DNA of 64,000 bases, from the NCBI GenBank assembly GCA_038727135.1, contig JAVYWL010000001.1, forward strand, positions 608,001 to 672,000. Direction: 5' to 3'. Below, in pieces: positions 8,317-9,035 of this stretch. The DNA comes from Candidatus Bathyarchaeia archaeon. Lineage in GTDB: Archaea; Thermoproteota; Bathyarchaeia; Bathyarchaeales; Bathycorpusculaceae. How positions within the stretch are numbered: the stretch's first letter is position 1; every line of letters starts with the position of its first letter. The position numbers were made by a program, and so were the translations under genes. The notes under the pieces are model-generated. The model ran no database searches. It was given only the letters and a program-made list of their open reading frames with translations, and was not told the origin of the DNA.

Positions 8317-9035
8317 TTAGAGTTTATGACCATAACGCCCCGTTAAAGGCACAAAAGCCACGCCACCCAAATTCTCACGCGTGATTTTCCCATCAGCGCC
8401 TTTTACAACTTTTATCAGGCTTTGGAAGAGATGCATGCTTCCAACTGGAATGAGCATTATTCCGCCGTTTTTTAGCTGTTCAATTAGAGGTTTTGGTATG
8501 TCTGGGGCTGCTGCTGTGACAACTATTCTGTCGTATGGCGCTTTTTCCGGGTATCCTATGGACCCATCTCCGCAGATTATTGTTACTCGGTCGCTGTATC
8601 CCGCTTTCATAATGTTTCTTCTTGCAAATTCCGCTAGTCCTTCAATTATTTCGACCGTGTAGACGTGTCCCCACTCGCTTCTGGGCGCTTCGCTTGGCGC
8701 CACAATTTCAGCTATTGTGGCGGCATGCCATCCTGAACCCGCTCCAACTTCTAGGACTTTGTTGCCTACTTCCAATTGGAGGGCTTCATTCATTATTGCA
8801 ACCATGTTTCGCCTAGCCCGGGCGGGAAGCCGAGGCTATGTGGCGCTGAAACCGTCTGCCCAAAGCCGATTGGAAGAGGCGTGTCAACGGCACTGTAGGG
8901 CTGCATGTTTTCTGGCAGAAACTTTGTTCGGGGCACCTTGCGCATCGCTTTAATTACTTTTTGGGAGCGAAGTACACCCTCTCTTATTAGACTCTCAATT
9001 AGTCGTTCCCAGTCCCTCTCCAAATTTTGCACCAT
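8317..9035 (-). CDS. pcm: Protein-L-isoaspartate O-methyltransferase, interrupted by a putative 32-nt intron (exons 9035-8840 and 8807-8317; 228 aa if spliced)
   Basis: ORF 8793-9059 ends ..[16 protein letters not shown] and ORF 8317-8805 starts [31 protein letters not shown]; together they make one full Pcm; exact start uncertain. Confidence 0.93.
8808..8839 (-). other. Putative bulge-helix-bulge mRNA intron in pcm
   Basis: Minus strand reads CGCC-AC^A-UAGCCUCGGC-UUCCC-GCCCGGGCUA-GGCG-AA^A-CAUG: a 4-bp central helix, two 3-nt bulges and an internal hairpin; excision gives GCG CCA CAC AUG (A-P-H-M). Confidence 0.85.

Follow-up and report, generated by a model that had tools for sequence, protein, structure and literature searches.

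Why does the protein-repair gene pcm of a hot-spring archaeon lie in two different reading frames that part within a conserved motif? The gene occupies positions 9059 to 8317 on the minus strand of a 64,000-nt stretch of Candidatus Bathyarchaeia archaeon DNA (NCBI GenBank assembly GCA_038727135.1, contig JAVYWL010000001.1, positions 608,001 to 672,000 of the forward strand); this whole stretch is referred to as the window and provides the numbering used below. The analysis suggests, with a probability of roughly 0.9, that pcm hosts a pre-mRNA intron of the bulge-helix-bulge (BHB) type, processed by the archaeal endonuclease EndA and the ligase RtcB. The case for splicing rests mainly on comparative evidence.

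A complete gene in two frames

The upstream open reading frame (ORF; 9059 to 8793, minus strand) encodes 88 aa and ends with GQTVSAPH, followed by 14 unrelated residues and UAA, and the downstream ORF (8805 to 8317, minus strand) encodes 162 aa starting with MVAIMNEA. Both match the Pfam family PCMT (PF01135) above its curated cut-off, the former over profile positions 4-62 (E 5.6e-14) and the latter over positions 61-208 of 210 (E 3.7e-46), and jointly they form a full-length family member. As the two profile pieces abut (62/61), pcm is complete apart from its frame. No other full pcm orthologue exists in the 1.55-Mb genome, where two further matches are weak paralogues, and the part corresponding to exon 1 is present in relatives, as found by tblastn with residues 1-73.

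The frames are separated by a GC-rich insert of 32 nt (8808 to 8839, minus strand), located between bases 1 and 2 of the His codon in the SAPHMV motif (QTVSAPH/MVAIM, the slash marking the insert). Exon 1 (8840 to 9059, minus strand) extends from the ATG at 9059-9057 to a C at position 8840, the first base of the His codon; exon 2 (8317 to 8807, minus strand) begins with the AC of the same codon, continues with ATG GTT, and ends with a stop codon at 8319-8317. Excision of 8808-8839 gives GCG CCA C/AC AUG GUU, i.e., A-P-H-M-V, and a gene of 236 codons. The unspliced frame terminates at the UAA at 8793-8795 (minus strand), 15 codons past the His position. An earlier examination of the letters and ORFs of the window (the sequence-only reading) had proposed that pcm is split in its conserved QT(I/V)SAPH-MV motif by a 32-nt insert and that unspliced mRNA reaches this UAA; all coordinates of the split agree with the sequence and the ORFs, and the premature stop is borne out by the ORF listing. 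A mobile element as the source of the insert was rejected, since a blastn-short search with the intron found no second copy in the genome (the self match, and others of at most 16 nt).

The predicted bulge-helix-bulge motif

The minus-strand mRNA reads ..UCAG CGCC (8845-8842) ACA (8841-8839) UAGCCUCGGC UUCCC GCCCGGGCUA GGCG (8813-8810) AAA (8809-8807) CAUGG.. across the junction. The 5' strand of the central helix H, CGCC (8842 to 8845, minus strand), is located in exon 1, and its partner at 8810-8813, the 3' strand GGCG (minus strand), belongs to the intron. The 5' bulge ACA (8839 to 8841, minus strand) is unpaired in the fold, with the predicted cut between 8840 and 8839, while the 3' bulge AAA (8807 to 8809, minus strand) has its predicted cut between 8808 and 8807. 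The junction hence contains two 3-nt bulges on opposite strands with a 4-bp helix between them. The inner helix h' and its loop (8814 to 8838, minus strand) are present in the RNA fold as a hairpin, UAGCCU-C-GGC / UUCCC / GCC-C-GGGCUA, composed of 6 bp, a C.C mismatch, 3 bp and a 5-nt loop; h' has 6 contiguous pairs here and 4-12 contiguous pairs in 115 of the 120 intron-bearing junctions collected from relatives. These results agree with the helix and bulges that the sequence-only reading had placed at the same positions, and with its hairpin including the C.C mismatch and the 5-nt loop.

Distribution of the insert among relatives

Junctions were mapped by placing both protein halves with tblastn in each homologous locus and reading off the intervening sequence, a placement that is independent of RNA structure. 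Among the 61 genomes of the same order that were searched, 58 have a pcm orthologue (two give only weak paralogue matches and one gives none); the insert is present at the same codon in 48 of the 58, including 14/14 of the same genus, and is missing in 10. A set of named public loci from Bathyarchaeia, Bathyarchaeota or 'uncultured archaeon' metagenome-assembled genomes, which partially overlaps with the former set, contains the insert in 67 of 80 cases. In the class sample, where a long open frame served as the proxy for insert absence, such long frames prevail in the majority of families beyond the order, and two families with short frames carry a same-site insert of 21-57 nt in 12/12 loci fetched. 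Sampling of the phylum revealed four families outside the class with short frames (insert in 11/11 loci fetched), while controls from other families lack it (0/2 loci fetched). After deduplication, 141 distinct junctions remained, 120 with an insert (21-57 nt, mostly 31 or 32) and 21 without. Two further loci (L058 and L177) were left out of these counts, tblastn having stopped short of the junction; by eye, both show a same-site insert with GGCG and a 3-nt bulge.

The intronless relatives carry exactly the predicted junction, CCN CAC/CAT ATG. A quick FastTree of the 141 rows requires 12 intron losses, with intronless genes nested among intron-bearing ones, in a sample that is biased to intron-bearing genes because rows outside the order were fetched for their short open frames. 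The exact spliced junction in such nested genes is as expected if the losses occurred via copies of spliced mRNA.

The pcm genes of the four families outside the class are 59-67% identical to exon 2, i.e., as close as families of the same order, which leaves two readings, an old intron-bearing pcm lineage or movement of the gene between classes. Four genomes from two other families of the phylum have pcm matches with one in-frame TAG each (G220:C1:1961947-1962396, G372:C50:2691-3140, G262:C1:1969653-1970102, and G216:C11:40732-41208). Two loci fetched from this TAG-bearing set (L179 and L180) have an intact, intronless junction.

Covariation, splice sites and codon constraint

All four pairs of the central helix form in 120/120 junctions, the second one as G-C in 106, A-U in 11 and G-U in 3. 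Pairs 1-4 of the inner helix form in 120, 119, 119 and 117 of the 120, each with three to six pair types. When the 3' partners are slid by 1-2 columns, most inner-helix pairs drop sharply, and three of the four central pairs fall to 0-0.25 at each shift; one slid central pair remains at 1.0 because the strands are C- and G-rich. When the 41 junctions whose introns measure 31 nt are aligned without gaps over 50 columns, 99% of the cells pair (100% in the central helix) versus 15-39% after sliding, and six of ten pairs, among them all five tested pairs of the inner helix, show compensatory changes on both sides, with 0/500 shuffles reaching the observed values. Such shuffle tests are inflated by relatedness, which does not affect the slid controls and the many independent pair types. 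An alignment of pcm across Bathyarchaeia had been named by the sequence-only reading as a check; it shows the insert at the same codon together with the compensatory changes.

The bulges vary within narrow limits. The 5' bulge is ACA in 107 junctions, UCU in 7, ACU in 4 and UCA in 2; the 3' bulge is AAA in 78, AGA in 21, AUA in 11, ACA in 7, UUA in 2 and UAA in 1, which corresponds to the pattern A/U-N-A with a free middle base. EndA is described as cutting between the second and third bulge residues (PMC2738675). Applied to the relatives, this rule leaves a final C in exon 1 and an initial AC in exon 2, restoring the His codon C/AC in 120/120 junctions, whatever the intron length; the removal of 8808-8839 proposed in the sequence-only reading thus holds for frame and motif both here and in every intron-bearing junction. 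The UCU and ACU variants of the 5' bulge are of particular value: with them, only the cut pair given by the BHB rule yields Pro-His-Met, so that the splice site is fixed uniquely. The intron length is not a multiple of three in 102 of the 120, and both exons are nonetheless open and conserved across families.

The coding side of the central helix is similarly restricted. Intron-bearing genes encode the Ala-Pro pair as GCG CCA (100), GCA CCA (11, all with the intron strand GGUG) or GCG CCU (9), so that the exon codon GCG faces intron GGCG in 106 junctions and GCA faces GGUG in 11. Ten different codon pairs are found among only 21 intronless genes. Selection on the coding exon side of the central helix is visible in this synonymous codon usage.

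These patterns bear on the idea that pcm is truly split or decaying, the insert being neutral or mobile and the ORFs representing either a two-piece enzyme or untranslated remnants. Gene callers would agree with it: in public annotation, 110 of the 120 best relatives of exon 2 are called as proteins of 158-163 aa starting at the Met after the insert. An ATG does follow the insert, and in some relatives the intron provides GGUGA just upstream of it, which we take to be Shine-Dalgarno-like. The Met, however, is part of the HMV motif in intronless genes too, and is not evidence of a start. The tail that runs from exon 1 into the insert ends after 2-31 codons in 119/120 relatives, without conservation of its length, and a neutral insert would not keep a compensating 4-bp exon-intron helix, 3-nt bulges and restricted synonymous codons across families. 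A split or decaying gene is accordingly considered highly improbable.

Still other explanations leave the RNA uncut. The shortness of the insert, its GC-richness and the ACA found at either border might suggest an assembly or sequencing artefact, or a site where ribosomes hop over the insert. Translational bypass of this kind is known from phage T4 gene 60, and a hairpin at the take-off site is one of its features. An artefact is contradicted by inserts of differing sequence in more than 100 independently assembled genomes. For bypass, a ribosome that landed on the matching CAU (8806-8804) would not be in frame with ATG GTT GCA; moreover, relatives with a UCU bulge read CUU after the Pro codon, and therefore no His can be read there unless the RNA is joined. 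The chance that either explanation applies is negligible.

RNA reads across the junction

No RNA run is listed as containing this stretch; four runs were aligned to it at 85% likeness, with about 3-5% of runs X3 and X5 read. A single joint was found, 8806 to 8839, which skips 32 nt and can be moved by one base. One raw RNA-seq read, from run X5, shows it, the shorter side measuring 54 nt; the read is 90-95% alike to the window, as are all six reads aligned from this run. No reads of run X3 aligned in the part that was read. Over the 147-nt span of the X5 read, none of the 23 intronless relatives exceeds 80.3% identity to the window, and all 20 loci of at least 90% identity carry the intron. 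The likeness points to a source within the same genus, and spliced pcm mRNA from a close relative is thus the best explanation of the read; as a single molecule, it is given modest weight.

Observations that weigh against splicing

Several findings weigh against a spliced pcm or limit the support for it. Direct RNA support amounts to the X5 read and a single contig, and the two stem from relatives and not from this strain. The contig, which belongs to run X1, shows the same joint with 26 nt on the shorter side, and this run is flagged 'RNA? (probably DNA)'. The metatranscriptome check envisaged in the sequence-only reading thus stands in part: the joined form was seen, in too few molecules and from another strain.

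The motif itself is not canonical. The canonical hBHBh' form is described as possessing two or more Watson-Crick pairs per outer helix (PMC7714728), and the exon-side outer helix of pcm consists of a single G-C pair. Across the 120 junctions, this pair is invariant, the next position is mismatched in 84 (A-U in the other 36), and the third is mismatched in 114. The single constant outer pair makes the motif one of the relaxed HBh' type, in line with the weak outer helix and relaxed BHB that had been read from the window.

The minimum free energy (MFE) of the 76-nt stretch is ordinary as well (z -0.86; 42/200 shuffles fold equally well). The MFE fold favours a helix between GUUUC (8852-8848) and GAAAC (8810-8806), which buries the 3' bulge: GAAAC takes in the final central-helix base, the bulge itself and exon 2's first paired base. 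All five pairs of this competing helix are possible in 49/120 relatives, with weak covariation of the middle pair. As a conserved structure it was rejected on these grounds, and it is retained as a possible conformer. Given the ordinary energy and the competing helix, energy alone cannot single out the motif, and geometry and comparison were used instead; what is beyond chance is the geometry of the motif relative to the coding frame, and its conservation.

On the protein side, the downstream ORF begins with ATG, and a separate translation into 162 aa is possible on sequence alone. No full-length protein of more than 84% identity, and no spliced-form product of the genus, occurs among the best 120 hits; the eight 225-aa proteins found there are 81-84% identical, like intronless lineages. 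The absence of a full-length product of more than 90% identity among these 120 is not evidence against splicing.

Splicing enzymes and proposed mechanism

Two EndA paralogues, 185 and 186 aa long, are encoded in the genome, near G000:C1:491442-491999 and G000:C1:298943-299503. One of them is closest to the PDB chains 2cv8_A, 3p1z_B, 3ajv_B and 2zyz_B, titled only 'tRNA-splicing endonuclease', which we presume to be crenarchaeal catalytic subunits; the other is closest to 5x89_A and 1a79_A. Relaxed motifs call for an EndA of the (alpha-beta)2 or epsilon2 type, and two different subunits would fit the hetero-oligomeric type. The latter is associated with relaxed motifs and cbf5 splicing (as described in PMC5829648 and PMC10485636). 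An RtcB-type ligase is present (G000:C1:467305-468615, E 1.1e-180), as is archease (G000:C1:464419-464835, E 1.2e-45). The archease gene lies about 2.5 kb upstream of that of RtcB on the same strand. Among the tRNA predictions made with ARAGORN, 17 of 50 contain introns, several at non-canonical positions. Some of these calls are probably unreliable, as two have 'introns' of 1.7-1.9 kb and a tRNA with a CUA anticodon has a 105-nt intron (C3:63018-63199).

On this basis, pcm would be transcribed as a pre-mRNA with a 32-nt BHB intron. The last four bases of exon 1 before the bulge (CGCC) would pair with GGCG close to the intron's 3' end, with the intron hairpin stacking on this helix, and the two 3-nt bulges, ACA and AAA, would be exposed on opposite strands. 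The nuclease would be EndA, probably a heteromeric (alpha-beta)2 enzyme built from the two paralogues, cutting each bulge between its second and third bases. RtcB, presumably the ligase and aided by archease, would join the exons and probably circularise the intron. Translation of the joined mRNA, with ..SAP-H-MVAIM.., would give the 236-residue protein-L-isoaspartate O-methyltransferase, and that of unspliced mRNA an 88-residue fragment only; splicing in vivo is expected to be efficient.

EndA might alternatively cut the BHB without any rejoining of the exons, a switch that shuts down pcm mRNA and leaves either the 162-aa C-terminal fragment or nothing. Conservation of the BHB shows selection for recognition and not for ligation, the downstream ORF has its ATG, and the eukaryotic TSEN endonuclease cuts some mRNAs for decay without splicing (PMC10485636, in its available text). 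A pure cleavage site, however, needs no restoration of the His codon and frame, which is found in 120/120 junctions, nor does it account for an exon 1 that is open and conserved across families or for intronless relatives bearing exactly the spliced junction. The joined form in the RNA read and the contig and the presence of RtcB and archease also speak for ligation, and cleavage alone is regarded as very unlikely.

Relation to known introns

An intron in the cbf5 pre-mRNA of Crenarchaeota was reportedly described by Watanabe in 2002. The pcm intron resembles it in many respects (Yokobori 2009, PMC2738675). Both are short introns within a coding sequence (16-44 bp in cbf5, 21-57 nt in pcm), with a relaxed BHB whose cut site, predicted in the case of pcm, lies between bases two and three of each bulge. 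Each interrupts an important codon after base 1, that of the catalytic Asp in cbf5 and that of the SAPHMV His in pcm, and each shows precise, lineage-specific losses. A hetero-oligomeric EndA is linked to cbf5 and is probable for pcm. The hosts differ: cbf5 encodes an RNA pseudouridine synthase, whereas pcm encodes a protein-repair methyltransferase, and the cbf5 intron is described from Sulfolobales and Desulfurococcales, whereas that of pcm occurs in Bathyarchaeia and in four further families belonging to the phylum. For cbf5, splicing was demonstrated with cDNA and by cleavage in vitro, while the joined form of pcm is known from one read and one contig.

Other systems are more distant. The BHB intron of HVO_1309 from Haloferax volcanii (Schwarz 2020, PMC7714728; PMC10485636) is likewise an mRNA substrate outside tRNA and rRNA, but it lies in the 5' untranslated region (UTR), where it interrupts no frame, and the EndA that serves it is an alpha2 homodimer. 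Those archaeal tRNA introns that occupy non-canonical positions and have relaxed HBh' motifs are alike in geometry and presumed enzymes; unlike them, the pcm host RNA is translated and the exon half of its motif is constrained by codons. As the RNA is translated, splicing must precede or compete with ribosomes. Among eukaryotes, splicing of XBP1/HAC1 by IRE1 and RtcB (PMC13149111, in part) also removes a small frame-changing intron from a stress-related mRNA with an RtcB-type ligase and no spliceosome. IRE1 is, however, a different nuclease acting on a different stem-loop, and stress regulation is established there, whereas for pcm it is speculative. It is conceivable, if rather doubtful, that the intron is kept as a gate, pcm being made only when EndA, RtcB and archease are active and the BHB conformer prevails over the GUUUC/GAAAC helix. 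If this were true, pcm would represent an archaeal counterpart of unconventional splicing of the XBP1/HAC1 type, and the same logic would apply to cbf5.

In the available text of a 2020 report (PMC7714728), cbf5 is the only further BHB intron mentioned besides the 5'-UTR case of HVO_1309. The same report and PMC10485636, in the portions available, present cbf5 as the only archaeal coding sequence known to need endonuclease splicing and expect that more will probably be found; a 2009 source (PMC2738675), to the same extent, holds unconfirmed predictions only, in a virus and Sulfolobus genomes. Literature on isoaspartate enzymes or Bathyarchaeota combined with archaeal splicing does not describe a pcm intron, within a coverage that is incomplete and leaves an earlier mention possible. 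The sequence-only reading had suggested a splicing-dependent coding gene outside cbf5 that is apparently undescribed, a view supported by the conservation, the enzymes and the literature search. pcm seems to be the second protein-coding gene, after cbf5, that needs BHB splicing. The gene and the lineages hosting the intron are new, and its mechanism is shared with the cbf5 intron.

A second intron in a coding sequence turns a single curiosity into a class, as it occurs in an unrelated gene, at one codon, in several families of Thermoproteota, with covariation and repeated precise loss. It provides a natural data set on how BHB introns are gained, retained and lost under codon constraint, and suggests a search strategy, in which conserved genes are screened for two halves that adjoin in the family profile and are separated by a BHB. 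It also uncovers a systematic annotation error by which public protein sets come to lack the N-terminal 74 residues of the protein.

cbf5 of the same genome and a genome-wide scan

The cbf5 gene of the same genome, outside the window, contains a 21-nt BHB insert (L147:1797-1817, equivalent to G000:C2:128162-128182, minus strand) with an in-frame UAA. The insert is located between bases 1 and 2 of the catalytic Asp codon (GTLD/PNVTGVLPV), and its BHB consists of the helix CCCU/GGGG with bulges AGA and AAA; the motif folds exceptionally well relative to shuffled sequences (z -4.05, 0/200 as good). The site is that reported for crenarchaeal cbf5 introns (PMC2738675, in its available text). Relatives carry a same-site insert of 18-41 nt in 27 of 30 cbf5 loci, with covarying helices (CCCU/GGGG versus CUCU/AGAG). 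The cbf5 intron thus extends to Bathyarchaeia, and cbf5 is an internal control for the interpretation of pcm. In pcm and cbf5 alike, the intron interrupts an important codon in phase 1 and exon 2 starts with AC, a shared pattern that may hint at a common rule of insertion or selection, and at more introns in genes annotated as truncated.

Both strands of the genome were scanned for 4+4 bp in BHB register with an intron of 14-80 nt whose removal fuses two frames of at least 60 codons, giving 1439 hits at 877 loci. A stricter filter (length up to 50, loop up to 16, no more than three G-U pairs, both frames at least 70 codons) retained 30 loci, pcm and cbf5 among them. The other 28, judged by eye and with homology unused, resemble neighbouring genes, such as a ribosomal-protein pair and a kinase pair, and a structural scan alone cannot distinguish genuine introns from gene neighbours. 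The cbf5 match of one relative is split in another manner: at G044:C66:1843-4209, residues 1-102 and 91-253 are matched about 1.6 kb apart within one 873-codon frame, which may reflect an intein or another in-frame insertion.

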